From positions 7,637-71,636 of the forward strand of contig DASYRN010000045.1 in assembly GCA_036004365.1 (NCBI GenBank): 64,000 nucleotides of DNA. The letters are read 5' to 3'. Source of the stretch: Candidatus Binatia bacterium (GTDB lineage: Bacteria > Desulfobacterota > Binatia > UBA9968). Numbering within the stretch: the stretch's first letter is position 1; the number at the start of each line of letters is the position of its first letter. The translations under genes were made by a program, and so were the position numbers. This document shows, in pieces, positions 16,612-51,845 of this stretch. Below the pieces are notes generated by a model that searched no databases, was not told the DNA's origin, and was given only the letters and a program-made list of their open reading frames with translations.

Positions 16612-16722
16612 CTAAGCACTTATCACAACTAACGAACACGATCACAAATCACGATCCGCCTTTTGCTCTTTCGATTCTATCCTTTATCCTTCATCCTTTA
16701 TTCTTTTTCTTGGAGGTAACCC

Positions 16723-28639: not shown

Positions 28640-28870
28640 AGCTTCGAAAAGCGCCACGATCGTCTTCGTGGAACGTGATCGTGAACAAGAACTGATGCTG
28701 TTATCACTTTTACGATTGCGCAAGTGCGCAAATGAGAAAATGTCCCAAGGCGCGAGCCTTGAGGTATGAGGACAAAAGGTGAGGATGATTCAGGAGGAAC
28801 GATAGCGGAACAAGGGAAAACGGCGGGGAGAAGAGGCTGGAGAGACCGGATAATTTTTTCTACGAGGAAG

Positions 28871-29686
28871 ATGGCGGCAACAAACCGCACCCGGAGAATT
28901 AAGGGAGTGGTTCGGGTCTGCGGGCTGTTCTTCCTGTACGATCTACTTGCTGTTTCCCCCGGTTTTTCCTGGCATGACAAAGGCCATCGCGTTGTGGCGA
29001 TCATCGCCCAGGCGAATCTCACCCCGGAGGCCAAAAAACGGATTCAGGAGATAGTACCTTCAGGCACCACTCTCGCCGACGCAGCCGTCTGGCCGGACTA
29101 CGAAGGGAGAAAAGTGGGAGATTTGGATCCGCTCCACTACGTCAGTATTTCCGACGGCGCCAACGGCTACGATCAAGCGCGTGACTGTCCGGAGAAAAAC
29201 TGTATGGTTGAAGCACTCAAGTGGTTTTCATCGAACATCGCCGACGAGAATGCCCCGACCGTCATGAGACGAATCGCTCTGCGGTATGTCGCGCATCTGG
29301 TCGGTGACCTGCACCAGCCGCTGCATGCGGGCAGGGCAACGGATCGAGGCGGCACGGATATCACGGTGACGTATAGAAGACAGACGACCAACCTGCACTT
29401 CTTTTGGGATAAAGACTTAGTGGAGATGGAAGAAGGAAACGCAGAGGAGGTAGCTGAGCGGCTTGGGGCGAGCCTTACTGAAGAGGAACGTCTTAAATGG
29501 CGGGCGGGCGACCCGAAACAATGGACTGATGAGTCGCTCGTGCTTGCAAGATCCTATGCGTACCCTATAGGGGGATCCTTTGAGCTTTCTGACGACTACG
29601 TAGAAAGGGCCCGACCGATTGTGCGAGTAAGGCTTGTTCAGGCTGGGATAAGATTAGCATGGTTGCTGAACATGGCTTTCAAATAG
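28871..29686 (+). CDS. S1/P1-family zinc nuclease, secreted
   Basis: W-H-x-x-GH after the signal segment, WPDYEGR, LHYVSI, CPEKNCMVEAL, ALRYVAHLVGDLHQPLH and GGTDITV...NLHFFWD match fungal P1 / plant S1 landmarks from memory. ATG at 28871 after GAGGAAG. Confidence 0.85.
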   Translation: MAATNRTRRIKGVVRVCGLFFLYDLLAVSPGFSWHDKGHRVVAIIAQANLTPEAKKRIQEIVPSGTTLADAAVWPDYEGRKVGDLDPLHYVSISDGANGYDQARDCPEKNCMVEALKWFSSNIADENAPTVMRRIALRYVAHLVGDLHQPLHAGRATDRGGTDITVTYRRQTTNLHFFWDKDLVEMEEGNAEEVAERLGASLTEEERLKWRAGDPKQWTDESLVLARSYAYPIGGSFELSDDYVERARPIVRVRLVQAGIRLAWLLNMAFK

Positions 29687-36200: not shown

Positions 36201-36950
36201 TTAAGAAGGGTTCTTTCTTGTGGGAGGAACGATTCTAGCCTGTTCGATGGCGGGTTTGGCCGCTTCCTTATGAGGGCGAGCTAGCTGGTCTGGAGCGTCG
36301 GTCGTTTTAGGCTGACCTTCTATTGTTTGTCTTAGAATTTCCTCTTGCAGCGAACCTTTATTGTTCCCAGCTACGGGCTTTCCCGTCTCAATGTCGTCAT
36401 TGATGAAAACTGCGGCTGCAAAGACAGTCGTCCAGAGCCCATCTTTATTGCCAACGGCAGACTGAGTGATATTGGTAGTACGGACGATCTTGCCGGACAT
36501 CTTGAAAAGTTGCTCGCGCTCGTCCCAATCCAATTCAGGATCAAATTCAATCCCCAGGGTAGTCGCGAGCATGCTGGCGGCGAGGTCTTCCGCATATTCT
36601 CCCGCTCGTTCATCGGTTTCTCCAAACGAATGATGCTCGGAAAGATAACCGTGCATGGAAGAATCCGCGGGGATCGCCAAGCCGATAGAAGCTGCGATGA
36701 GACGATTTGGCTCGTTGTTACTTTCTCGATCATAAACGGCAAATACAATCTCTCCGGGCCGTAAGAGCTTTAATCCTTCCTCCTTGGAGATAATCTTGCA
36801 GGCTGGGGGATAGATGCTGGAGACGAGAACCAAATTGCAGTGGGCCAAGCCGGCAACCCGCAGCGCCATCTCAAAGGAGGCCAACCGTTCCTTATGAACG
36901 CCGACTCCTTTGGTGAAAAAAACTTTCTTAGGAACCATATGTGGCTGCAT
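36201..36950 (-). CDS. pdaD: pyruvoyl-dependent arginine decarboxylase with about 70-aa C-terminal extension
   Basis: [44 protein letters not shown] carries the Ser-Ser self-cleavage site. Start is 36950 or 36938. Confidence 0.85.
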
Positions 36951-37076
36951 TTTAACATGACGAAAATGAGCTGACAAGAAAATTTCTTATCCTGAGATTA
37001 TTTTTATTGACATTCGCTTGCTCATGATCTAGAGGCTTAACAAGATCACCAAAACAAGTTGGAGGAGGTATCCACG

Positions 37077-40444: not shown

Positions 40445-41518
40445 ATGTCAGGCGAAAGTTTCCGTGGCGAGATCGGACTCCACTTTCCGTTGCATGTCCT
40501 TAACCGCTACTCTCTCCCCGAGCTGATCCGCCTTGCGGAACGCGCTGTGGAGGCACTTCGACAGTTCGGCTTCACGCAGATCTGGACCAACGATAATCTA
40601 GAGTATCGAAGCGTTTTGGCGAGCTCCGCTGCACTCGTGGCGCGGGTTCCGGTCAAGCTCGGAACGGCCGTCACCGTTCCCTATTTTCGCAACCCCATCG
40701 ATCTGGCCGCGGCGTTCGTCACTCTCTCCGAACTCACAAACGGGCAGGAAATCTCGCTTGGCCTGGGACCCGGCTCGAGGTCGATCCTGACCCATCAAGT
40801 CGATCGTGTGAAGCCGCTGATCATCATGGCCGAGTTGGCGACGGCTCTGCGGAAGCTCTTCGATGGAAAGGCAATCGGGCGCAATGAAATTCCGAATTTG
40901 GCTTCCTATTTTCACTTGAACGCGGAAAGTTACACTTTGCGCTTCAAGGCCCAGTCGCCGATCCGGCTTTACTATGGTCCAAGCCTGCTCAAGCCCGCGG
41001 TCTTAAATCTAATCGGATGCCACTTCGATGGGGTCATCCTGCAAACTCTGTATAGCGGGGCGGATATGGAGGCTACGCTCTCGAGTCTGAAACGTGCCCG
41101 CGCACAGTCCGCTCTAAGGGAGCCGCTAGCTAAAATCATGCTTATCAACGCGTCCGTTTCTCGCGACGGACGGGCGGCGAGAGAGCACGCCAAGCGCTTC
41201 GTGTCCCACATCATCGCCGGATGGCCGGACGACACCCTCCAAAGGAAAGGCATTGACCCAGCCTCCGTTCAGTCGGTGCGCCGAGCCTACGCTCAGAACC
41301 GCGGAGTGGATTATGCGGCGTCGCTGACTCCGGAGGAAGCGGTGGACCGTCTGGTCGTCGCTGGCACGCCGGAGCAGTGCATCGAACGGATCTCCGAACT
41401 CTTTTCCACCGGCGCGAAGCACGAATTCGGGCAGATCTTTATCGGCGTGCCACTTGGACCCGATGTCGGTGAAGTGATCGATATCTGGGCTAAAGAGATC
41501 CTGCCGGCTCTTTCGTAA
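40445..41518 (+). CDS. LLM-class (luciferase-like) flavin/F420-dependent oxidoreductase
   Basis: 357 aa. TIM-barrel LLM-type text (FTQIWTNDNLEY...LGTAVTVPYFRNP...GLGPG). Confidence 0.75.
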   Translation: MSGESFRGEIGLHFPLHVLNRYSLPELIRLAERAVEALRQFGFTQIWTNDNLEYRSVLASSAALVARVPVKLGTAVTVPYFRNPIDLAAAFVTLSELTNGQEISLGLGPGSRSILTHQVDRVKPLIIMAELATALRKLFDGKAIGRNEIPNLASYFHLNAESYTLRFKAQSPIRLYYGPSLLKPAVLNLIGCHFDGVILQTLYSGADMEATLSSLKRARAQSALREPLAKIMLINASVSRDGRAAREHAKRFVSHIIAGWPDDTLQRKGIDPASVQSVRRAYAQNRGVDYAASLTPEEAVDRLVVAGTPEQCIERISELFSTGAKHEFGQIFIGVPLGPDVGEVIDIWAKEILPALS

Positions 41519-41648
41519 TCCGAAAGATGTGGGCGAATTCAGATCTCCGCCTTGCCACACTCAGGCAGATGCGCGGTGAACTGTCTACCCCCGAAACCTG
41601 ACTTCTGAAACGCTGCGCCAAAACGGGAATGTAGAAGACTCGATGCGC

Positions 41649-42311
41649 TCAGTGGCCGGGGCTCTCCAAGACGGCGAGCGCGGCCTGGCAGCAGAGGATG
41701 TCCTGCTCGGCTCGGCTACCGCCGGCTACGCCGATGGCGCCGACGATCGCCGCGCCGTCAACGATCGCAATGCCTCCACCCGCCGGCATGATGCGACCGC
41801 GGTGCGAGATGACGAGGCTGCGAAACCAGGGGCGGCGCGCTTGGGGCGCCAACTCGGCGGTGGCCAGGTGAAAGGCGGCGGCCGTGTAGGCCTTATTGAA
41901 GGCGAGCTCTGCAGTCCTGGGCTCGGCTTGGTCCATCCGTCCGACGGCGATAGGAGTGCCAGCTTCATCTACGACCACGGCCGTCACCGCGATCCCCGCT
42001 CTTTCCGCGTAGGCGTGCGCTCGATGCACCATCTCCCATGCCTTGTCCACCGGAACCGGCCCAACTGCTGCTTTGTTCTTACGGAAGAAGCTGGCATTGA
42101 CCTCGATGGAGGCCTCATGCTCGGCGGGGAGCTTGGAATCGAGGAAGATCGCGTCCACCGGGCAGACGATCTCACACTGCTCGCACTCGATGCACACTTC
42201 GGGATCAACGTAGTGTTGTGGAGCCCCCGGGAGGGTATGAATGCAGGCGACCGGGCAGACGTCGACGCACGCCCCATCATTTGTACACAGCGAGGTGATA
42301 ATGTACGTCAC
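41649..42311 (-). CDS. ferredoxin (7Fe-type Cys pattern) fused to GlcG/HbpS-like (DUF336) domain
   Basis: C9-x5-C15-x3-C19-P and C40-x2-C43-x2-C46-x3-C50-P. The C-terminal half (ITAVVVDEAGTPIAVGRMD...FNKAYTAAAF...GGIAIVDGAAIVGAIGVAGG) is paralogous to 44593-44991. Confidence 0.8.
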   Translation of the reverse strand: MTYIITSLCTNDGACVDVCPVACIHTLPGAPQHYVDPEVCIECEQCEIVCPVDAIFLDSKLPAEHEASIEVNASFFRKNKAAVGPVPVDKAWEMVHRAHAYAERAGIAVTAVVVDEAGTPIAVGRMDQAEPRTAELAFNKAYTAAAFHLATAELAPQARRPWFRSLVISHRGRIMPAGGGIAIVDGAAIVGAIGVAGGSRAEQDILCCQAALAVLESPGH

Positions 42312-42351
42312 GGAAATCCCTTCTACTAGGTAGCTTCAGAACTCCTCTGAA

Positions 42352-42441
42352 CGTCATGCCAGCCGAGCCCGCGACAGCGGGCGAGAGCCGGAATCCAGGC
42401 AAATATAAGAAGTGCTGGATTTCCGCTTCCGCGGAAATGAC
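42352..42441. repeat. REP/MITE-like palindromic element (CGTCAT...CCGGAATCCAG / CTGGATTTCCG...ATGACG)
   Basis: Terminal CGTCAT/ATGACG, inner CCGGAATCCAG vs CTGGATTTCCG, and an internal hairpin GCCCGC-GACA-GCGGGC. One frame translates to LDFRFRGNDE, a string I recall from dispersed repeats of many bacteria. Confidence 0.55.
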
Positions 42442-42485
42442 GAACCCCGAGGGTCGATTCTTTGGCTGATTTCACACATAGGTGC

Positions 42486-43082
42486 CTATCCATCCGCCCT
42501 CAGCGGCAAATCGGTGCGAATGACGTTCGTCACATGGACGCGGGTCCCATATTTGGGAGTCACTAGCCTCCCGTTAGGGTTGAGAGTACCCAGCCCCGCC
42601 GCCGCGGCGAGCCGCTCGGCATTGGGATCCGGCGCTGCCGTGGCGCGAAAGCCAAGCTCTCTGATCCACGCGCTGAGAACGAAAGTGACGAACAGCCCGT
42701 TCTGCACCGGCACCTGGCCGCCGATGCCCGGGGCCTCTCGCGGGTCATAATCGGCTCGAACCGCACAGATGACGGCGAAGGGATACTGCTCGTCTTTCGA
42801 ATCCAATCTGGCGATACCCACCAGATCGGTGCCCAGGTAGCGGGCCAGCTCCTTGACATGGTTGGACGTGATCTCGGGCGTGTGGATGTCCGCTTTGGTC
42901 GGGAAGACGTTACCCTCGGGCGCACTGCGGATCAGCTCCGTCACCGAATTGGCCAGATCTTCCGGAGGCGTGTTGATGAAAAAATCCCAGTATGGGTCGC
43001 CTGCCCTGAGCCTGGTCGAAGGGTCGTGCTGGGAGCGTGTCTTCGGCCACGGGATTTTTAGCGGGCCCAGTCTGAGGGTCAC
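42486..43082 (-). CDS. RdhA/QueG-superfamily core-only paralogue (no Fe-S domain)
   Basis: The GTG at 43082 shares its G with the TAG stop of the upstream gene. KELARYLGTDLVGIARL...GLGTLNPNGRLVTPKYGTRVHVTNVIRTDLPL parallels KAVARYMGADVVAIAR...GVGELGRNGLIINEKFGARIHMPDPIMTDLPL of the 433-aa protein, and it ends just where that protein's Cys motifs begin. Confidence 0.6.
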   Translation of the reverse strand: MTLRLGPLKIPWPKTRSQHDPSTRLRAGDPYWDFFINTPPEDLANSVTELIRSAPEGNVFPTKADIHTPEITSNHVKELARYLGTDLVGIARLDSKDEQYPFAVICAVRADYDPREAPGIGGQVPVQNGLFVTFVLSAWIRELGFRATAAPDPNAERLAAAAGLGTLNPNGRLVTPKYGTRVHVTNVIRTDLPLRADG

Positions 43083-44383
43083 TAAACGTCCCGCTTGACG
43101 AATCGGTTGGTATTCTCTTTCAGCGGAGCATAGTAGCCGATATCTCCCGCCACCTTTCCCGAGTTCGCCTCGTGCGCCGCGGTGCAACCGGCAACGGTAC
43201 ACGCGTGCTCTCCGGGCTTGATGCCGGAGTCATACCCAAGCCAGCGCACCCGCTTCTGACTCACCACGCCCCAGAAGCGATCATCGATCGCCTTCAGCGC
43301 GTGCACGAGCGCCGGTCGCGCGGGGATAGGGCAGGTGCGCAGAGCCCAGACCGTAAGGCTGCGCCACCAAACGTTGGGTTTGGTGAACGGGCAAACGGTG
43401 GCGCAGGTCAGGCAGCTCATCCAGTGGTCGTGGGTGTACGGCCGCAGCTTATAGCAGGTCAGCCAGTTGATCTTGTACTTCTCGACGCCGTTGAAGACCA
43501 CCTTATCGCCGAAGGGGATGCTGTTGGTGGGACAGTTGACAGCGCATTTGCGGCAAATCTTGCAGAAGTCCTCGACGCCTATGTCGACGGGTTGGTCCGG
43601 CACCAGCGGGAGGTCGGTCATGATGGGATCGGGCATGTGGATGCGGGCACCGAACTTCTCGTTGATGATGAGTCCGTTTCGGCCCAGTTCGCCCACGCCG
43701 GCGGCCAGCCCGGCGGCCTGAGGGTTCGCCACGCCCCGTAGAGCGGTGTAACCCAGCTCCTTGACGTAGCCCTCCAGGGCCTTGAGGATCATGACACCTT
43801 TCATTTGAGAGACGTGGTAGGCCGCATCGCCGACGTGATGGCGGTGCGCCTGAAGCTTATCGTGGTCCCATGCGGTCGTCGTGACGATGATGTAGGGGAA
43901 CTTCCGCACCAGCTCCTCGGGAGTGCTTTGTTGGTACGCGTCCTCTGCCGTGCCGTCTTGCACGTAGCGGTTGCCAGCGTACATGAAGGATGGATGCGCC
44001 CTGGCGATGGCGACGACGTCAGCGCCCATATAACGGGCGACGGCCTTGATGTGGCGCGTCATCGCCGCGGGATCCGTCACTGGCACCTGCTTCGAGTTGA
44101 CCTTGCCCTTGCTGGCTTGGTTAATCACCGTGGTCAGGAAATGTCTGCGATCGGCGAAATGGTTCGGGGCCGACACCCGGGTAAGTGGATCTTTGGAGAT
44201 CGTGTTGCGGTACCAGTTGAAAAGGGCCTTCCCCAGCTCACCGCGCTGGTTTTTGGGATGCGGCGACTGGTTCATATCGACATTAGCGACAGGCCCCACG
44301 ACACGGGCTGACCGGCCGAGGTTGGGTACGGGCGGGATATCCAAGCCTCTTTGATTAACCTTGTCTAGCGTTGCGTTCCCCAT
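43082..44383 (-). CDS. reductive dehalogenase / epoxyqueuosine reductase superfamily protein, cytoplasmic type (no Tat signal)
   Basis: 433 aa. Fe-S motifs CKICRKCAVNCP and C-x14-CLTCATVCP in the C-terminal third, and an N-terminal core with the GADVVAIA motif. No RRxFxK and no RdhB-like gene nearby. Confidence 0.65.
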   Translation of the reverse strand: MGNATLDKVNQRGLDIPPVPNLGRSARVVGPVANVDMNQSPHPKNQRGELGKALFNWYRNTISKDPLTRVSAPNHFADRRHFLTTVINQASKGKVNSKQVPVTDPAAMTRHIKAVARYMGADVVAIARAHPSFMYAGNRYVQDGTAEDAYQQSTPEELVRKFPYIIVTTTAWDHDKLQAHRHHVGDAAYHVSQMKGVMILKALEGYVKELGYTALRGVANPQAAGLAAGVGELGRNGLIINEKFGARIHMPDPIMTDLPLVPDQPVDIGVEDFCKICRKCAVNCPTNSIPFGDKVVFNGVEKYKINWLTCYKLRPYTHDHWMSCLTCATVCPFTKPNVWWRSLTVWALRTCPIPARPALVHALKAIDDRFWGVVSQKRVRWLGYDSGIKPGEHACTVAGCTAAHEANSGKVAGDIGYYAPLKENTNRFVKRDV

Positions 44384-44592
44384 GGCGAATTTTCCCTTCT
44401 TTTAGAAAGGATGAAGTATGAAATCGGAAGGATGAAGTGACAATGGCGCATTGACAGATGTTTTTTTATCCCTTAGCCTTCATCCTTTAGTTCTCCTGTA
44501 TGTTTGCCACGAAAACCGACTCTGATGCAACTCCTTATATGTCATATGTCCCGTGCGCCTAGAGGGAGCCGGCGTCTGACGTGCATCCCATC

Positions 44593-44991
44593 TCAGGCAT
44601 AGGAGGCGAGAGCGGCTTCAGCGCAGCGCTGGTCCTGCTCTTCAGTACCACCCGCTACGGCGATGGCGCCCACAACATTGCCGCCCTCCACGATGGGCAA
44701 TGCGCCTGCACCGGGCATGATTCGACCGTTGCTGGAGACGACCAGGCTTTGAAACCATGTCTGCCCGGCAACTCCCGCCAACTCCTTGGTAGGCTGCTGG
44801 AAACTCGCTGCCGTGTAGGCTTTGTTGAGAGCAATTTCCACCGTAATGGGACGAGCACGGTCCATACGGCCTAGCGCGATCATACGGCCACTGTGGTCAA
44901 CGACCACAGCGGTGACTGCGATATCCAACTGCGTGGCCTCAAGGTGGGCGGTTCGCACCATCTGAATCGCTTTTTCTCCGGGGATAGCCAT
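44593..44991 (-). CDS. GlcG/HbpS-like (DUF336) protein
   Basis: 132 aa. VTAVVVDHSGRMIALGRMD...ALNKAYTAASF...GALPIVEGGNVVGAIAVAGG. Confidence 0.8.
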   Translation of the reverse strand: MAIPGEKAIQMVRTAHLEATQLDIAVTAVVVDHSGRMIALGRMDRARPITVEIALNKAYTAASFQQPTKELAGVAGQTWFQSLVVSSNGRIMPGAGALPIVEGGNVVGAIAVAGGTEEQDQRCAEAALASYA

Positions 44992-45175
44992 CGTCGTTCG
45001 CGGTCCTCCTTGTCGTCGAAGTGGCGCCTAGTGTAACAGGTAATGCTAACCAACAGTCAAGCACTTACAGGCTGTTGAAAGCGCCGCGAGTCAGTGGTTC
45101 CCACAAGAGGGTAAATCCAAGCAAGGAGCGCGTACTAAGGGATGAAGGATGAAATGCCTAATCAGTTCATTGCCT

Positions 45176-46579
45176 TTAAGGTTTATCGTTCGGGACGAGG
45201 AGTCGGGCGAGCTTCCCGGCGTCTTCGAGCCTGTCTAGACTTTCAATCGTATCTTGGAGTTCGTCGATACGGGACGGCGAAAGGACTCGCGAGGCAAGCA
45301 GGCGAAATTTTTCGCTGACCTCGACGCGTGTCATGGGATGCTTATCACTTCCCTTGGCGTGAAGCACTTTGGCCCCGTAGCTCTTCCCGTCTCTCGTCTC
45401 GACCTCTAGAATCACGCCGTGGCGCCCTTCGTCTCCTAGGGCCTCGAGCTCGGTATCTTCAACCACCTCGATCTTTTTCGTCGTATTCAGGACGTCAGCC
45501 CTGTTTATGGATTTCTCCGTCACCTGATCGACGAAGAAGTCCCGGTCGTGGAGCAACACCGCAACACAATAAAGAAGATTCATTTGCGCCGTGGTCAGGC
45601 TGTTCGGCACATAAGGCCAACCGACATGAAGCTTGGTGGCGCGGGTTGTGCGGATGGTGATTTTTTCCGCGTTCTCCGCGCTTACGTCGGGGTGCTCACG
45701 GAGAATTTTCTTGAGCGCATCGATCGAAGTGTGATTGCTGCCGCAGCAAGGATAAGGTTTGAAGCCGACGTTCAGGGCCTCGAACCGTTCGCCAAGATCT
45801 CGCGTCAGGTGGGATAGGTTGGGATTGTCGCAGAAGGTCGAGCAGAAGCCTCCATAAGGCGCTTCGAGAATATCCTCGATTCCGGTAAATCCCTTAGCGG
45901 CGAGCAGTGCTCCGTACACACCTGCCTGTGATGCCCTACCAGGGTGCATGCGCTTTACCATCGAAGCTTGTTGGGCAGCCATAAGGCCCGCGGCCTGAGT
46001 GCCAGCGATTCCCAAGGCGTGGAGTGTCTCTGACGGATCAAGTCCAAGCATTTTTGCCGCCGCGGCTCCAGCAGCGAAGGTTCCTGAGGTGGCCGTAGGG
46101 TGGAAGCCCCGGCGCAACTGGGAAGCGCCCCCTGTCATGGCCACGCGGCAGCCTGCCTCATAACCAGCGATTACAGCCGTAAGGAATCTCTTGCCGTCTG
46201 TCGCGCCGTCGTAGCGTACCAGGGCATCTGCCGCAGGTATCGCTTCGGCGCCCGGGTGGATGACGCCGACGCGGTGAAGATCGTCCATTTCAAAGCTGTG
46301 GATCAAGGTACCATTGGCCAACGGCGCGCTCGTGCTGGGAACCTCTGCGCCATCGCCCCAGAGAAGAGCCCCTTTGCCCGCGCCTAGCTCCTTTGCAAAG
46401 CCTGTGATGATTTTTCCCCAAGGAAGGGTCGAGCCGAAAAGGGCGCATCCGAGAGAATCGAGTAGGCAGAGCTTGACGTGTGAGATGACCTCTCCGGGAA
46501 TATCACTGTACGAAAGCGACGATACAAACTGCGCGAGAGCGCGGGTGGGCGAGGTCTCTGGGCTTTGACTCGTTAACAT
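45176..46579 (-). CDS. MmgE/PrpD family protein (2-methylcitrate dehydratase-like)
   Basis: 467 aa. LLDSLGCALFGS...AEAIPAADAL...HPTATSGTFAAGAAAAKMLGL. Confidence 0.85.
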   Translation of the reverse strand: MLTSQSPETSPTRALAQFVSSLSYSDIPGEVISHVKLCLLDSLGCALFGSTLPWGKIITGFAKELGAGKGALLWGDGAEVPSTSAPLANGTLIHSFEMDDLHRVGVIHPGAEAIPAADALVRYDGATDGKRFLTAVIAGYEAGCRVAMTGGASQLRRGFHPTATSGTFAAGAAAAKMLGLDPSETLHALGIAGTQAAGLMAAQQASMVKRMHPGRASQAGVYGALLAAKGFTGIEDILEAPYGGFCSTFCDNPNLSHLTRDLGERFEALNVGFKPYPCCGSNHTSIDALKKILREHPDVSAENAEKITIRTTRATKLHVGWPYVPNSLTTAQMNLLYCVAVLLHDRDFFVDQVTEKSINRADVLNTTKKIEVVEDTELEALGDEGRHGVILEVETRDGKSYGAKVLHAKGSDKHPMTRVEVSEKFRLLASRVLSPSRIDELQDTIESLDRLEDAGKLARLLVPNDKP

Positions 46580-46664
46580 GAGGTTCGATCAACCGGATAG
46601 ATTTTGCCCATCCTCTTATTGTATACGTGGTTCTGTCAAGGCCCAGGAACACGAGGGAGGAAAA

Positions 46665-47735
46665 ATGCGCCTGCAAAAGTGGTCTCTGGTTGGGGTGATC
46701 CTGGCGATCTTCGCTTCTCCCCATCGCAGCTATGCACAGTCGGCCGGAGAGATCCTCAAGCGCTACGAAGGGCTGAGCCCAAAGCAGCGCCAGGAAAAGC
46801 TCGTTGAGGGCGCGCGGAAGGAAGCAGCAGTCGTGATTTACAGTTTTACCGCAGTCGACCAGCTCACGCCATTACTTGAAGAATTCTACAAGAAATACCC
46901 GTTTGTTAAACCAGAGCACTACAGGGCCAACGCCTCAGGCGTTTTTAATAAGTTTATCACCGAGGCGCGCGCCGGCCGGACCCTGGCCGATGTGCTCGAT
47001 ATCTCGGCGGGCGAAGCCTATACCCTACGCCAGATGGGACTCGTCGATCCTTATTCTTCTCCCTTTAGAGAAGGGATTCCAAAAGATTTTCTGGACGAGC
47101 GAGGGTATTGGGCCGCGCATTACCACTTCGTAGTCGCCTTGGGCGCTAATACCAGAGCCATCAGCGCCTCGGAGGCACCGAGAAGCTACGGAGAGCTACT
47201 CAACCCGAAATGGAAAGGGCGCTTCTCGCTGGATCCCGCTGATCAAGATCTTTTTGGTGCGCTGCTGATGTATTGGGGGAAAGAGAAGACGCTTGACTAT
47301 TTTAAAAATCTCGCAAAACTCGAACCCCGGATGGTCACCGGCCACACGCAACAAGCCAATCTCGTTGGGTCGGGCGAGATTCACATGGCTCCGTGGCTTT
47401 ACGGCTATCGTCCGCTTCAATTAAAGGACGAGGGAGCTCCGGTTGAGGTCTTTCTCTTTGATCCTGTTCTCACCAACCCCGCTTATCTTTTGCTGGCGAA
47501 GAATTCTCCTCACGCTCACGCGGCCGCGCTCCTGATCGATTGGGCTCTTTCCGCTGACGGAGGGATGAAGTTTTTTGCCGAGAAATTCGGTCGAACGCCT
47601 ACTCGGCCGGGACTCAAGGAGAGGTTTCCACAACTTCGGGTGGAGAAATACCTCGTCGTCAAACCCGAAGTCGTCGGGCCAAACTTCAAAGAGTTCACCA
47701 AGGTCTATAACGAGATTTTTGCGATTGGTAAGTAG
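46665..47735 (+). CDS. periplasmic solute-binding protein (SBP family 1, iron(III)/polyamine-like)
   Basis: ATG at 46665 after GAGGGAGG, with a signal peptide. Paralogous to 50047-51171 (KKYPFVKPEHYRA.. vs KKYPFVKVMVWRS..). Confidence 0.75.
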   Translation: MRLQKWSLVGVILAIFASPHRSYAQSAGEILKRYEGLSPKQRQEKLVEGARKEAAVVIYSFTAVDQLTPLLEEFYKKYPFVKPEHYRANASGVFNKFITEARAGRTLADVLDISAGEAYTLRQMGLVDPYSSPFREGIPKDFLDERGYWAAHYHFVVALGANTRAISASEAPRSYGELLNPKWKGRFSLDPADQDLFGALLMYWGKEKTLDYFKNLAKLEPRMVTGHTQQANLVGSGEIHMAPWLYGYRPLQLKDEGAPVEVFLFDPVLTNPAYLLLAKNSPHAHAAALLIDWALSADGGMKFFAEKFGRTPTRPGLKERFPQLRVEKYLVVKPEVVGPNFKEFTKVYNEIFAIGK

Positions 47736-47741
47736 GGAGGT

Positions 47742-48677
47742 TTATTTTTTCCCGCGAAAACGGAACAGTTCGACGAGCTTTCGCCGAACCACCTCCTCGC
47801 CGCCCGGCAGGATGTCAAACTTTGTTGTGTTATCCATCTTTTGCATTATTTTCCGGCCTTCGTCATCTTGATGCATCGAAAGCAAGGTCTCCTGAAGACG
47901 CTTGGCCACCTCCGGATGCAAACCCCTGCGAATAGAAACGAGATGGCGTGGAACCGTCTCCGTTTCGGCCAGGATAGCGATCTCGGCCCTTGCTTTCTCG
48001 TCAAGCGTGGCGTAGTCGTCATCGCTAAACGCACCAGCCATCACCTTCTTTGAGAGAAGGAGGTCAGCGATATTTTTGTGTGTAGAGGCAAAGATGTAGC
48101 CAATCTCCTTAGGAGAAACCTTGGCTTCGAGCCCGGGTTTTTCGGTAAGTCTGAATCCCTTCCTTAGAAGGAAGACCTTTGGCAAAAGATAGGCTGAAGT
48201 AGACCCGGGATCCTCGAAGGCGATGATCTTACCCTGTAGGTCTTCAAGCCGGGCTATGCCGCTCTCTTTGCTCGTGGCAAGGATGCCTCGATATTCGCCC
48301 TTCCCCCCCTTCCAACGCCTGAGCAACAATCTCGCGGACCCTTGCCTGTTGATGAGATAGGTCGGATAGGGGCTTTCCATATAAAAATCAACCCGCTTCT
48401 CCTCAAGCAGCTTTGCGAGTTGTAGCGCTGTCGGAGCCACAACAACCGTTCCTTTGATCTCGGAAGTGGAGGAGAGTTTTCGCGCGACATAACCCACAAA
48501 ATCGCGGAAATGCTCCTCGATCTCCTTCTGATGTATTTGAGAGACGAGTCCTAAAGAGATCGTTTTAACTGTGCCGGTCTCCGGCGCCTGTCCGGCAGCT
48601 TCAAGCTCAGGGGTTAGGAGAGAAACAAGAGCGGCAACGGCAAATATGAGGGAGGCATGATGTGTGTGTCTCTTCAT
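47742..48677 (-). CDS. PhnD-like (phosphonate/phosphite-type) solute-binding protein
   Basis: 311 aa with a signal peptide. ISLGLVSQ....EEHFRDFVGYVARKL resembles PhnD-type SBPs. Confidence 0.65.
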   Translation of the reverse strand: MKRHTHHASLIFAVAALVSLLTPELEAAGQAPETGTVKTISLGLVSQIHQKEIEEHFRDFVGYVARKLSSTSEIKGTVVVAPTALQLAKLLEEKRVDFYMESPYPTYLINRQGSARLLLRRWKGGKGEYRGILATSKESGIARLEDLQGKIIAFEDPGSTSAYLLPKVFLLRKGFRLTEKPGLEAKVSPKEIGYIFASTHKNIADLLLSKKVMAGAFSDDDYATLDEKARAEIAILAETETVPRHLVSIRRGLHPEVAKRLQETLLSMHQDDEGRKIMQKMDNTTKFDILPGGEEVVRRKLVELFRFRGKK

Positions 48678-48965
48678 GACGACCTGTCACAGCCGGGAAT
48701 TTGCCGCGGGAGAACCCGAGAGCAATGGCGAACGACAAAGCCCACGCTACGTATATATAAACGAGGCAAACTTGGCAAGAATGAAAACAGATTCGGAAGC
48801 ACCTGGTGTCGCAAATCCTCGCCAAACGCCGAAACGACTCCGGGGAGGCCGGCTGTTTCACACCGGTGTATGAGGTCAGTGGACAGGCACGGAGAGGTTG
48901 TAATATAAGCAGTCTTGTCGTGGCTGCCGGGCGATTGCGGCGACACCAAAATCGGAGGTGAGATC

Positions 48966-50027
48966 ATGTGGTACAAAGCGAAGGCGCTCGATTTATTCGG
49001 AGTGGCGTTGGGATTCGGCTGCTTAGTGATTTTTCCCAAAGACGCTTTCTCTCAGGCCGGCTACTACCAGGGGAAGACCATCACGATTGTTCGGGGCGGG
49101 GAACCGGGGGGCTCAGGGGATATGCAGGCCAGGGCGTTGATACCGTTCCTCAAAAAACATATTCCCGGGAATCCGAATATTATCGTGGAGAACATGCCCG
49201 GCGCCGCCGGGATGAAAGCGGTCAACCATATTTATACGGCGAAGCCCGATGGGCTCACGATCACCGCCGTCGGCTCCGGCCTCGCCGCAGGCCCGATCCT
49301 CGGCTTGCCGGGAGTAAAATACGACATCGATAAGCTGATTTATCTGGGGTCGACGGAGCATGGCGATCCCTATGTCTTTTTAAGCCGGAAAGAAGCCGGT
49401 TTCGACAGTCTGGAAAAGCTGCGTGCTGCGTCGGGGATCAGGCTCGGTGCGCAAACCGTGGGCCACGCGGTTTATATTAGCGGGCGTATCTTCGCGCATC
49501 TTCTGGGTCTCAAGGATCCCAAGGTCGTTGTCGGCTTTGGAGGACCAGAGCTCGACATCGCTTTGGCCCGAGGCGAGGTTGACGCCAGAGCGAACAGCGC
49601 GGATACGGTGGTGCGCAGAAACGCCGATGCGCTGGAAAAAGGTCAGTTCAACATTCACGCCACCATCACGATTCCAAAAGGGAAGTTTCACCCGCGCTTC
49701 GCGAACGTCCCCGATGTGGAGACGCTTGCTAAAAACGACAAAGAGCGCCAACTGGTAAATCTGTTCCGCGCGTTTCTCTATCCGCGTTGGCCTTACGTGC
49801 TGCCGCCAGGCACCCCCGCGGAAATCGTCAAGGTCCTGCGCGAAGGGATGGTCAAGGCCTTTAAGGACCCGGGTTTTCACCAGGAATTTAAAAAACTCAT
49901 GGCGAGCGATCCATCCCCTCTCACCGGAGAAGAGGTGGAGACATCCATTAGAGAGCTGCCGCGCGATCCCGAGGTCATTGGACTATATAAAAAGATGGCC
50001 GAGCATGGACCGCTGCCGCCGCGCTAG
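48966..50027 (+). CDS. Bug/TctC-family tripartite tricarboxylate transporter solute-binding protein
   Basis: YYQGKTITIVRGGEPGGSGDMQARALIPFLKKHIPGNPNIIVENMPGAAGMKAVNHIY. ATG at 48966 after GGAGG. Confidence 0.8.
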   Translation: MWYKAKALDLFGVALGFGCLVIFPKDAFSQAGYYQGKTITIVRGGEPGGSGDMQARALIPFLKKHIPGNPNIIVENMPGAAGMKAVNHIYTAKPDGLTITAVGSGLAAGPILGLPGVKYDIDKLIYLGSTEHGDPYVFLSRKEAGFDSLEKLRAASGIRLGAQTVGHAVYISGRIFAHLLGLKDPKVVVGFGGPELDIALARGEVDARANSADTVVRRNADALEKGQFNIHATITIPKGKFHPRFANVPDVETLAKNDKERQLVNLFRAFLYPRWPYVLPPGTPAEIVKVLREGMVKAFKDPGFHQEFKKLMASDPSPLTGEEVETSIRELPRDPEVIGLYKKMAEHGPLPPR

Positions 50028-50046
50028 GGTGGGCATTTCCTTTCAT

Positions 50047-51171
50047 CTATCTCCTGCTGATGAAGAGCTGCCGCATTAGAGCTTCCCACTCAGCAAATCT
50101 CTTCTCATACTCTTCGAGAGAGTATTTGGCCTCGAGGTAGGTTTTCTTGAATTTCGTCTCCAACGAGCCGATGTCGCTCCGCGGCGAGTTCAGGCCGCCT
50201 TTCATCGCAACTTGCTGTCCCTCTCTTGAATGGATGTAGTCAAGGAAAAGAAGCGCAGCATGGGGATGGGGAACCTTGTTGAGCAACCCGGACTTGCCGA
50301 CGCTCGCAATCACCGGCTCTAAAGGACGCCACTCGACGGGAGCTCCCTTCTGCCTGGCCGTGGTGATATTGGAGTCGAAGATTGTGGGAGAAAGCGGCAC
50401 CTCGCCAGAGGCCACGAGACCTGCCAGCGCCGCTCCCGACATGTTTTGGACGTTCACCTGCTGTTGGCTCATCTTTTCGAGAAACTCGCGGCCCATCCCC
50501 TCCAGCAGATTTCCCACCCACTGGACCCCCGTAGTCGTGCCGGCAATGGACATTTTTCCCTTCCATTTGGGATCGAGGAGATCTTTCAGGCTCCGAGGCG
50601 CCTCGGCCGGCGGCACGAGCTTGGTGTTGAATCCCAGACTGATATAGATCTCTCGATTCGCCCAATAAACAACGCCGTTTTTTCCTTTCGTCTTCACTTC
50701 GTCGCCATAAAAAGCCATCTCAGGCGAATAGTGTTCTTGGAGCATGTCGTTTTTATGCAACAGCGCCATGTATTCAGGGCTCGTCTCCAAGACGTCGGCG
50801 ATGAGGCGGCCTGAGGCATATTCCTCTGTGACACGCTTGAGCAATTCCTTAGAGTCGCTGCGCCATACCATGACCTTAACGAACGGGTATTTCTTTTCGA
50901 ATGCCTGGGGCAACGCGCTCGCCATCCACGTGTTCGATGTGTAAAACGTCACTTGTCCTTCTTTCTTGGCCCCTTCGATCAAGAGCGGCTCCCTGTCGCG
51001 GCCTTGATAAAGGGCGATCTCGGCAAGCGCTTTGGGCTTACTGGCGGTCGCTGCAAGGCCTGGGGTTGGCAGCGACAGGAACCCGGCCGTCAGCAGAGAG
51101 CCTGCCACTATGAAAAAGCGCGAAGATTGGAAGCGGGCAAACCGGCAAAGCATAAGAAAGCATCCTCCCAC
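50047..51171 (-). CDS. periplasmic solute-binding protein (SBP family 1), paralogue of 46665-47735
   Basis: 374 aa with a signal-like N-terminus (start may be 51153). Confidence 0.75.
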   Translation of the reverse strand: MGGCFLMLCRFARFQSSRFFIVAGSLLTAGFLSLPTPGLAATASKPKALAEIALYQGRDREPLLIEGAKKEGQVTFYTSNTWMASALPQAFEKKYPFVKVMVWRSDSKELLKRVTEEYASGRLIADVLETSPEYMALLHKNDMLQEHYSPEMAFYGDEVKTKGKNGVVYWANREIYISLGFNTKLVPPAEAPRSLKDLLDPKWKGKMSIAGTTTGVQWVGNLLEGMGREFLEKMSQQQVNVQNMSGAALAGLVASGEVPLSPTIFDSNITTARQKGAPVEWRPLEPVIASVGKSGLLNKVPHPHAALLFLDYIHSREGQQVAMKGGLNSPRSDIGSLETKFKKTYLEAKYSLEEYEKRFAEWEALMRQLFISRR

Positions 51172-51197: not shown

Positions 51198-51845
51198 CTA
51201 AAATTTCTTCCACGGGTTGATCCCCAACTCTACATGCTTTCGGTATAACATGGCTACATAGATAAAATCGAAAATGAATATGGACACATAAAGAAAGTTC
51301 AGAAGAACCGAGGCGGGAAAGCGAAGAAAAAACAGTATCGACGGCAATAAAGTTCCGAGCATCTTAAATAAGGCTATATAAATCGACTGGCCACTCACGT
51401 CTCTCCGATTCAGCAGCATCGATATAAACAAAACAGACATCATAAGATTTTGCCCGAAGGCTGCGTACTTGCCGTCCCAGTCTTTGAACTCATAGGTTAT
51501 GGCCAGGATGGCGCCAAAACTTAGGATTAGCGTTACAAGGAAAGTAAGATAGAAAAAGCGCGCCGGCAGTATTTGATTCAAGGCCTTCCCTCCGAAGCGG
51601 AGAGTTTGAAAGACGATGATCGTATCAAAGGCAAACCAAGCGATATTGATATAATTCTGAGGAGGCTCGTGCGGGTGCATGAAGGAAAATATAAATTCCC
51701 AGGAGATATTCGCCGATAGAGCCGCTACCGGCATCCCATAAGTCTTGTCCTGGAATCCCACTCGGAGGATCAAGATATAGGCCAAGGTCCAGAAGACTCC
51801 CGATCCGATCTGCAAGCTCAAGCTTATCTCAGGAGGAACCGCCAT
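51198..51845 (-). CDS. multi-pass membrane protein resembling PaxB/Pyr4-type transmembrane terpene cyclases (tentative)
   Basis: 215 aa with about 6-7 TM helices. FWTLAYILILRVGFQDKTYGMPVAALSANISWEFIFSF resembles W..NY......F.DETYGM....L..NI.WE of fungal PaxB as I recall it. Confidence 0.5.
   Translation of the reverse strand: MAVPPEISLSLQIGSGVFWTLAYILILRVGFQDKTYGMPVAALSANISWEFIFSFMHPHEPPQNYINIAWFAFDTIIVFQTLRFGGKALNQILPARFFYLTFLVTLILSFGAILAITYEFKDWDGKYAAFGQNLMMSVLFISMLLNRRDVSGQSIYIALFKMLGTLLPSILFFLRFPASVLLNFLYVSIFIFDFIYVAMLYRKHVELGINPWKKF

Follow-up and report, generated by a model that had tools for sequence, protein, structure and literature searches.

A cassette of four minus-strand genes was found in the 64-kb stretch of DNA analysed here, which comes from a Candidatus Binatia bacterium (contig DASYRN010000045.1) and is called the window throughout. 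Read in the direction of the genes, the cassette encodes a free-standing GlcG/HbpS-like protein of the DUF336 family (GlcG1), an RdhA-like protein (alpha), a shorter paralogue of the alpha core (beta) and a ferredoxin fused to a second GlcG-like domain (Fd-GlcG). We give a probability of about 0.5 to the reading that these four genes form a self-contained, soluble, cytoplasmic corrinoid/iron-sulfur reductase, and the cassette has a real chance of performing new chemistry. All four genes were confirmed in the open reading frame (ORF) listing of the window, from which the gene calls were taken, and motifs and N-termini were read directly from the translations.

Alpha (43082..44383, minus strand, 433 amino acids (aa)) is predicted to be an RdhA-superfamily protein with a corrinoid and two [4Fe-4S] clusters. 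The sequence-only reading of this DNA had placed it in the cytoplasmic part of the RdhA/QueG superfamily, and this was borne out by hidden Markov models and by the fold. A significant match to the curated models was also expected and was obtained with the reductive dehalogenase (RDH) model TIGR02486 of NCBIfam (E 7.6e-43), but the score of 147.5 bits is under the cut-off of 160.35 bits. The QueG model TIGR00276 gave 50.2 bits, under its cut-off of 200 bits, and the Pfam Dehalogenase model PF13486 gave no match to alpha at E <= 0.01. Fer4_7 and Fer4_16 of Pfam matched over the Fe-S region. Sequence matches in the PDB were to NpRdhA (4RAS, E 8.8e-31), PceA (6e-29) and QueG (1.6e-9). An AlphaFold2 (AF2) model made from a 97-sequence alignment that included distant representatives had a pLDDT of 81.4 and a pTM of 0.83, while the 29 close homologues alone gave an unusable model with a pLDDT of 46. 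When the usable model was compared with NpRdhA, PceA and QueG by Foldseek, as had been suggested, NpRdhA was the best match (E 1.8e-21, TM-score 0.66), with TM-scores of 0.53 for an RDH complex, 0.50 for PceA and 0.36 for QueG; weak matches to MMACHC were also returned (E about 0.02). Model and Foldseek matches together give an RdhA-type fold, in which a nitroreductase-like corrinoid core precedes a bacterial-ferredoxin-like domain. By sequence and predicted fold, alpha is an RdhA-clan protein closest to the catabolic type.

As claimed from the sequence alone, there is neither a twin-arginine translocation (TAT) signal on alpha, whose N-terminus lacks an RR motif, nor an RdhB-like gene. A TAT-like DRRHFL sequence at residues 78-83 was considered and rejected as a signal, as it lies 78 residues from the N-terminus and its first Arg is not conserved. 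No small membrane-protein ORF that could be rdhB was present in or adjoining the cassette, or in the related loci inspected. Given that the intergenic gaps inside the cassette are 209 and 174 nucleotides (nt) and that the flanking genes are PrpD-like and LLM genes, there is no room for rdhB nearby. The edge of the alpha family is sharp. Several phyla are represented among the 120 best homologues, whose identity is 74-90%, and in a library clustered at 50% the best representatives are ∼55% identical, the next full-length match is 39% identical and later ones ∼30%. A plasmid search gave only distant matches of the NpRdhA/BhbA type with less than 30% identity, and no cultured or plasmid-borne member of the family. 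One homologue of 506 aa (P0108) was examined as a natural fusion of GlcG to alpha and was discarded, its N-terminal extension being low-complexity read-through.

The two predicted [4Fe-4S] motifs of alpha lie at residues 274-331 (43391..43564, minus strand) and read CKICRKCAVNCP and C310-x13-CLTCATVCP. The first of these and the YMGADVVAIA core motif had been noted correctly, but the spacing in the second is x13 and not x14 as first quoted. In a 97-sequence superfamily alignment C274, C277, C280, C284 and C310 are invariant and C324, C327 and C331 are kept in at least 90% of sequences, so that alpha has the eight cysteines for two [4Fe-4S] motifs by which an RdhA is recognised. Of the core residues of the superfamily, G229, G231 and R235 are invariant in the same alignment and E232 is kept in at least 90%.

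The canonical catalytic residues, however, are replaced. Their columns were fixed by three alignments that agreed, namely pairwise phmmer, the family profile and a 92-sequence MAFFT alignment. Occupancy was then counted in an 84-sequence alpha set, consisting of proteins 50-90% identical to the window protein plus one canonical-type paralogue of 33% identity, and in a comparison set of 88 distant full-length relatives. Two clades are distinguished below, a crown clade with alpha identity of at least 72% and a deep clade (Chloroflexota/Dehalococcoidia) with 50-67%. In NpRdhA, Y426, K488 and R552 have been named as the key residues for substrate binding and catalysis (PMC10463259). Y426, equivalent to Y246 of PceA, corresponds to Gln193 of alpha; K488, equivalent to R305 of PceA, corresponds to His249; R552 corresponds to Arg314, which is invariant in a 29-sequence family alignment. 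Among the distant relatives column 193 is Tyr in 80/88, column 249 is Arg or Lys in 80/88, both are canonical in 77/88, and column 189 is never Tyr (0/88). In the alpha set column 193 is Tyr in 0/84 and Gln in 71/84, with Leu, Thr or Gly in the deep clade, and His249 is kept in 81/84. A family-specific helix motif, HRHHxGDxxYHxSQ, occupies residues 180-193 of the putative active site (43805..43846, minus strand), and its H180, R181, H182, D186 and Y189 are present in 83 of the 84 sequences, the single exception being the canonical-type paralogue. The invariant QAHRHHxGDxxY motif puts a Tyr one helical turn before the canonical position. On these alignments the Tyr is effectively shifted by one turn into a new His/Arg/His/Asp motif, and Tyr189 might be a stand-in for the canonical Tyr. 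The change argues for altered proton delivery or substrate binding and does not by itself prove that dehalogenase chemistry has been lost. As alpha has the fold and the Fe-S cysteines of an RdhA but neither the curated score nor the canonical catalytic residues, it should be described as an RdhA-like family and not as a dehalogenase.

Alpha also carries an extremely conserved N-terminal extension of ∼100 aa and a C-terminal extension of ∼70 aa. The latter contains a conserved Cys/Cys/His cluster, CTVAGCTAAH, at residues 395-404 (43172..43201, minus strand). In the corresponding CTxxGCTxxH motif C395 is kept in 79/84, C400 in 80/84 and H404 in 82/84, and C351, mainly a crown-clade residue, is found in 62/84; loci L081-L083, the three deepest, have a changed form of the motif. 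The cluster might form an extra metal site, in a region where AF2 is unreliable. The final residues 416-433 (43082-43135, minus strand) end in the near-invariant tail GYYxPLKENTNRFVKR, which is almost unchanged down to 50% overall identity yet is modelled as disordered. Taken together, this suggests that the tail packs against a partner or inserts into the active site.

Beta (42486..43082, minus strand) has two possible starts. The longest ORF (42486-43202) would encode 238 aa, and a GTG at 43082, which overlaps the alpha stop codon by 1 nt, gives 198 aa. Since the homologues at other loci are 188-192 aa long and start 0-5 nt past the alpha stop, the 198-aa version is preferred and the longer one is unlikely. 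The proposal that beta is a paralogue of only the core of alpha was confirmed by hhalign of the two family profiles (99.9% probability, 31% identity), in which beta covers alpha 51-264, the entire core up to the start of the Fe-S domain. Beta thus has no Fe-S domain, and it also lacks the HRHH motif. At the position of E232 it has Thr and at that of R235 it has Pro, whereas in the 88 distant relatives these columns are E in 80/88 and R in 87/88; R247 and H249 are kept. Descent of beta from the N-terminal domain of NpRdhA was considered and rejected, as beta matches the two NpRdhA domains equally weakly (10.8 and 10.5 bits) and is 31% identical to its own alpha. The same observations point to an independent duplication of alpha within this family. 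Beta has no Pfam match and, with identities of mostly 54-82%, shows the lowest conservation in the cassette. Its translational coupling to alpha, constant position and low conservation suggest a structural partner, and on this sequence analysis beta is most likely a cofactor-free protein that forms a 1:1 pair with alpha. The vestigial domain of NpRdhA is free of cobalamin and mimics the dimer interface of PceA (PMC10463259).

GlcG1 (44593..44991, minus strand, 132 aa, no signal peptide) matched PF03928 with E 3.9e-29 and 101.7 bits, as expected of the GlcG-like protein reported there from the sequence alone. Fd-GlcG (41649..42311, minus strand, 220 aa) likewise proved to be the described fusion, and an NCBI entry from a Candidatus Binatia metagenome-assembled genome is 100% identical to it. 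Its ferredoxin domain (aa 1-85, 42057..42311, minus strand) has the cysteine pattern of the 7Fe type ([3Fe-4S][4Fe-4S]), C9-x5-C15-x3-C19P ... C40xxC43xxC46xxxC50P, in 63-65 of 65 homologues. Residues 1-84 matched FdxA_Actino with E 2.4e-20 and 72.7 bits, under the full-length equivalog cut-off of 125, and FdxA_Protbact and FdxA_fam were also matched below their cut-offs. The GlcG2 domain (aa 89-213, 41673..42047, minus strand) matched PF03928 with E 3.3e-28 and 98.7 bits; the cut-off of this family is 25 bits. GlcG2 is 44-57% identical to GlcG1. The best relative of GlcG1 in the PDB is OrfY (2A2L, 1.4e-19), followed by NahX (9JTH) and the PduO C-domain (5CX7), with EfgA at E 1e-9; a literature search on NahX found nothing relevant. 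His16 of GlcG1 is invariant in 63/63 homologues, but only 37/65 homologues have His at its counterpart in GlcG2, His99. Ile9 of GlcG1 takes the place of His18, the haem ligand of the PduO C-domain, and the neighbouring Arg22 corresponds to the conserved Arg13. The PduO C-domain binds haem with a Kd of 0.16 µM and, when run with aquocobalamin on a native gel, formed a pink band. For HbpS the Kd of aquocobalamin binding is 34 µM, and the family forms dimer-based tetramers or octamers, PduOC, OrfY and HbpS being octamers (PMC4923194, PMC8153426). By inference from these relatives, the GlcG proteins could deliver, reduce or protect the corrinoid.

Conservation of the cassette was examined in a scan of one genome per species, which confirmed 282 stretches coding for a relative of alpha; 79 loci were retrieved. 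The hosts among the loci listed are all metagenome-assembled genomes, labelled Binatia, 'delta proteobacterium', Rokubacteria/Methylomirabilota, Acidobacteriota, Chloroflexota, Syntrophobacter-like, Eisenbacteria, Udaeobacter and one Gammaproteobacteria, and the gene order holds across six or more phylum-level labels. Counting loci with enough flank, in the crown clade GlcG1 lies upstream of alpha in 59/60, beta follows alpha in 58/59 and Fd-GlcG follows in 50/53. In the deep clade the corresponding counts are 1/16, 14/15 and 11/12. Beta is intact, of constant length and in its fixed position in 72/74 loci with sufficient flank. The same order in about 80 independent loci is far from chance. 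The sequence-only reading was to be given up if the adjacency of RdhA-like and GlcG genes was unique to this one genome; instead it is strongly conserved across phyla. That reading also knew of no described partnership of this kind, and indeed a full-text literature search for 'reductive dehalogenase' with GlcG or DUF336 found none, nor did such a search find a paper linking reductive dehalogenases with Binatota. The near absence of GlcG1 from the deep clade indicates an ancestral unit of alpha, beta and Fd-GlcG to which the free GlcG1 was added later. At one locus (L078 5373-9793, Dehalococcoidia chromosome OZ245323.1) two divergently oriented alpha-beta pairs lie side by side with only one Fd-GlcG gene.

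In the relatives examined outside the family the partnership is absent. In a sister clade (P0127, loci L084-L086) the RdhA-like protein is 39% identical to alpha and lacks the HRHH motif, and there is no GlcG and no beta; a plain 84-aa ferredoxin is encoded in place of beta and Fd-GlcG, with TctCBA genes after it. This clade keeps a CxxxGCxxxH-like C-terminus and has polysaccharide deacetylase and aldehyde:ferredoxin oxidoreductase genes upstream. Two canonical cytosolic relatives (P0145 and P0156) likewise have no GlcG or beta partner, and one of the two canonical relatives sits in a classic aromatic-acid cluster. The GlcG partnership is specific to the family of alpha. 'Simplified cytosolic' RdhA-like proteins of ∼395 aa have been described from Desulfobacterota and Chloroflexota in a survey in which the words 'heme', 'tyrosine' and 'catalytic residues' do not occur (PMC12219181). 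Alpha resembles them in being short, in lacking a fused vestigial domain and in its range of phyla. However, the relatives of this kind that were examined, P0145 and P0156, keep the canonical Tyr and Arg/Lys.

Identity across phyla is 77-95% for GlcG1, 73-89% for alpha, 67-84% for Fd-GlcG and lowest for beta. Recent horizontal transfer was rejected as the sole cause of this high identity, as the GC content of the cassette tracks that of each host (0.55-0.71, mean excess 1.5 points). In the window the cassette has a GC content of 0.606 against 0.538 for the rest, an excess larger than the mean of 0.015 in the other hosts. A neighbour-joining tree shows deep diversity in Chloroflexota and a crown clade in which Binatia, Rokubacteria, Acidobacteriota and singletons of other phyla are mixed, and this mixing makes older transfers likely. 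The cassette appears to have spread laterally long ago and to have been held since then under very strong purifying selection. The conservation fits one fixed substrate or set of partners better than diversification driven by xenobiotics.

In the mechanism that we propose, alpha would bind a base-off corrinoid and two [4Fe-4S] clusters in its RdhA-type fold, as its homologues do, and beta would occupy the surface that is the homodimer interface in PceA and is covered by the intramolecular vestigial domain in NpRdhA. Electrons would pass from the 7Fe ferredoxin domain to the distal [4Fe-4S] cluster, then to the proximal [4Fe-4S] cluster and to the cobalt. A ferredoxin is the probable donor as the sister clade P0127 encodes a plain ferredoxin at the same position and as NpRdhA works with ferredoxin in vitro (PMC10463259). 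GlcG1 and GlcG2 most likely co-assemble as a scaffold that tethers the ferredoxin to the enzyme. They may also hold a tetrapyrrole through which the cofactor is loaded or re-reduced; this could be a corrinoid, or haem serving as a redox relay. At the cobalt, a two-electron, proton-coupled reduction would take place. The proton relay, formed by Tyr189 in the invariant His/Arg/His/Asp motif together with His249 and Arg314, would be unlike that of the described dehalogenases. The enzyme probably acts on one small anionic or phenolic compound that is widely available, and not on a range of xenobiotics; the 74-90% alpha identity across phyla, the GC content that follows the host and the lack of conserved neighbours all suggest one conserved substrate.

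Several observations weigh against this proposal. R247 and H249 are also present in beta, and thus may be structural rather than catalytic residues. With the PduOC haem ligand replaced by Ile9, and with His16 invariant in GlcG1 but its counterpart variable in GlcG2, a tetrapyrrole site shared by the two GlcG domains is not obvious. GlcG1 cannot be essential to the basic machine if nearly all of the deep clade works without it, and no ferredoxin reductase is conserved near the cassette. Alpha residues 389-433 are extremely conserved but of low confidence in the AF2 model. The cofactor content, the formation of a complex, the electron path, the role of GlcG and the class of substrate are all inferred.

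The proposed system can be set against those already characterised. NpRdhA of Nitratireductor pacificus (4RAS, 6ZY1), which belongs to the catabolic type with BhbA and JtRdhA, is the best structural and a near-best sequence match of alpha. Both lack a TAT signal and RdhB, both have two [4Fe-4S] motifs and an equivalent Arg (Arg314 and R552), a duplicate of the core belongs to both systems, free of cobalamin in NpRdhA and probably so in beta, and alpha would share the dependence of NpRdhA on ferredoxin. Unlike NpRdhA, to which it is only about 25% identical, alpha has Gln193, His249 and the new HRHHxGDxxY motif as well as its own N- and C-terminal extensions. The vestigial core is a separate, translationally coupled protein from its own duplication and not an N-terminal domain, the catabolic type being a single polypeptide of ∼700 aa with this domain fused and alpha having 433 aa. 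The cassette also has no reductase domain or gene, and has GlcG/DUF336 proteins as partners. The respiratory enzymes PceA of Sulfurospirillum multivorans (4UQU) and the RDH complex 8Q4H share the corrinoid core and Fe-S domain with alpha (E 6e-29, TM-scores 0.50-0.53), but the cassette lacks the TAT signal, RdhB anchor, RdhT chaperone and RdhK regulator of respiratory systems. In place of Y246 and R305 of PceA alpha has Gln193 and His249, and it probably forms a heterodimer with beta instead of a homodimer. QueG (5D08, 5D6S) is of the same superfamily and is likewise cytoplasmic, with a high conservation suggesting one conserved substrate, but it is much more distant (E 1e-7 to 1e-9, TM-score 0.36) and all matches stay outside the QueG-specific parts of the model and of the structures. 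GlcG1 and GlcG2 share the PF03928 family with the PduO C-domain (5CX7), OrfY (2A2L) and HbpS, and Arg22 of PduOC is kept as Arg13. OrfY, from the B12-dependent dha cluster of Klebsiella, and the PduO C-domain go with components of cobalamin enzyme systems, either as neighbouring genes or as fusions, as the GlcG proteins do here. However, the partner here is an RdhA-type enzyme and not an adenosylcobalamin enzyme or adenosyltransferase, one GlcG copy is fused to a 7Fe ferredoxin, His18 of PduOC is replaced by Ile with a different His, His16, being invariant, and unlike the secreted HbpS the cassette proteins are cytoplasmic.

Alpha may instead be an ordinary catabolic (non-respiratory) reductive dehalogenase acting on natural soil organohalogens such as halogenated phenols or benzoates, with Tyr189 replacing the canonical Tyr and GlcG as an accessory. 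This explanation is possible though doubtful. NpRdhA is the closest structure, the RDH model is missed by 13 bits, Arg314 corresponds to a substrate-binding residue, the invariant Tyr is only one helical turn from its usual place, public pipelines name the homologues of alpha 'reductive dehalogenase' (and those of GlcG 'heme-binding protein'), and the hosts are soil and groundwater bacteria. However, the canonical Tyr is missing from the whole alpha set, the partner Arg/Lys column is His in nearly all of it, and Pfam Dehalogenase does not match. The 74-90% identity across phyla does not resemble the pattern of the rapidly diversifying dehalogenases. Canonical cytosolic relatives do sit in clusters with ring-cleavage, CoA-ligase and transport genes, and none of these is conserved near the cassette. 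A halogenated substrate is uncertain given the scores below the RDH and QueG cut-offs and the replaced Tyr and Arg/Lys. To our knowledge only two chemistries are established in the RdhA/QueG superfamily, reductive dehalogenation and epoxyqueuosine reduction. We tentatively put forward, as a rather unlikely extension of our reading, that the cassette represents a third functional branch, a non-dehalogenase cobalamin reductase with one non-halogenated or tetrapyrrole substrate in which the DUF336 proteins serve as corrinoid or electron modules.

A different role for the tetrapyrrole would be that of the substrate itself, the GlcG-held corrinoid or haem being processed by alpha (upper-ligand removal or remodelling in salvage) in a manner loosely like that of CblC/MMACHC, which shares its core fold with alpha-type proteins. 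The binding of haem and aquocobalamin by DUF336 proteins and the weak MMACHC matches would suit this, as would the autonomy of the cassette from any catabolic context and a sequence constraint strong enough for a universal substrate; GlcG and the new active-site motif also appear together and are both missing from the sister clade. All of this is circumstantial, alpha keeps the superfamily residues expected for a corrinoid of its own, the known haem ligand has been replaced, GlcG1 is not needed in the deep clade and no cob, cbi or btu genes were found in the window, so that we consider such a role unlikely. It is less probable again that the GlcG domains handle neither cofactor nor electrons and act as EfgA-like sensors or protectants for small molecules, gating or shielding the enzyme in response to a reactive product, for instance an aldehyde. 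Formaldehyde is bound and sensed by EfgA, itself a cytoplasmic member of DUF336, and DUF336 genes are located in aldehyde-producing pathways (PMC8153426). GlcG1 does match EfgA, but it is nearer to OrfY, NahX and PduOC, no regulator or output domain is present, and the ferredoxin fusion and the constant place in the operon are more in keeping with a redox component present in stoichiometric amount. That the adjacency is incidental, or beta a decaying pseudogene fragment, might be suspected from the low conservation of beta and its lack of a Pfam match. This is very improbable, being refuted by the preserved gene order, by the intact beta of constant length and fixed position, and by the alignment of its profile to that of alpha. 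We retain the soluble corrinoid/iron-sulfur reductase as the preferred explanation.

The sequence-only reading had taken the neighbours of the cassette to suggest a catabolic island, and this did not hold. In all-against-all clustering of flanking ORFs and a Pfam census of 150 flanking genes at other loci, each family occurred in at most 5 of these genes, and no conserved catabolic, transport or regulatory neighbours were found. The neighbours in the window, namely the PrpD-like and LLM genes, four orphan solute-binding proteins and miscellaneous genes further out, are thus incidental. The four solute-binding-protein genes (46578-51171) belong to families SBP_bac_6, Phosphonate-bd, TctC and SBP_bac_11, and no permease or ATPase genes are among the ORFs annotated around them. 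Also present and unrelated to the cassette are a Pyr4-like transmembrane terpene cyclase (51198-51845), a pyruvoyl-dependent arginine decarboxylase (36201-36977) and an S1/P1 nuclease homologue (28766-29686).

The spacer between GlcG1 and alpha (44384..44592, minus strand) contains three copies of the 9-mer RGGATGAAG and a TTGCATC...TTTTCGTGG element. The window has 10 copies of the 9-mer where 1.7 are expected, at 44406-44491 and 45137-45155 and also at 16689, 17921, 19256, 26976, 27863 and 47562; four copies, one of them inverted, are in the two intergenic regions of the cassette. It is found in the GlcG1-alpha spacer of 9/61 other loci and could be an operator or a lineage-specific intergenic repeat. 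The second element, TTGCATC-N10-TTTT(C/G)GTG(G/T) at 44497-44530 (minus strand), recurs in the GlcG1-alpha spacers of three other loci (L005, L007 and L051) that are otherwise unrelated in sequence, and may be a conserved promoter or regulatory site. One sigma-70-like site was seen in the spacer at 44443-44415, though the promoter and terminator scan was at or below the expectation from shuffled sequence. Rfam gave no match in the whole window at gathering thresholds, and thus no cobalamin riboswitch, and none in 41400-45300 at E <= 1. The RNA folds of the two intergenic spacers were not significant (z = -1.2 for the GlcG1-alpha spacer and z = -1.8 for the other).

The rearranged active site, the strong constraint and the wide spread in abundant uncultured soil lineages make the alpha family a promising place to look for new B12 chemistry or, failing that, for a new mode of proton delivery at cobalt. 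DUF336/GlcG proteins recur beside cobalamin enzymes, as with PduO and OrfY, but in this cassette the link is an obligatory one, with one of the copies joined covalently to a ferredoxin. With four small soluble proteins that lend themselves to co-expression, the puzzle of DUF336 and cobalamin becomes testable, and if the cassette does represent a third branch of the superfamily, DUF336 would gain a biochemical role in B12 systems such as those of PduO and OrfY. Metagenomic surveys that count alpha-type genes as 'reductive dehalogenase' may overstate the organohalide-reducing potential of soils.

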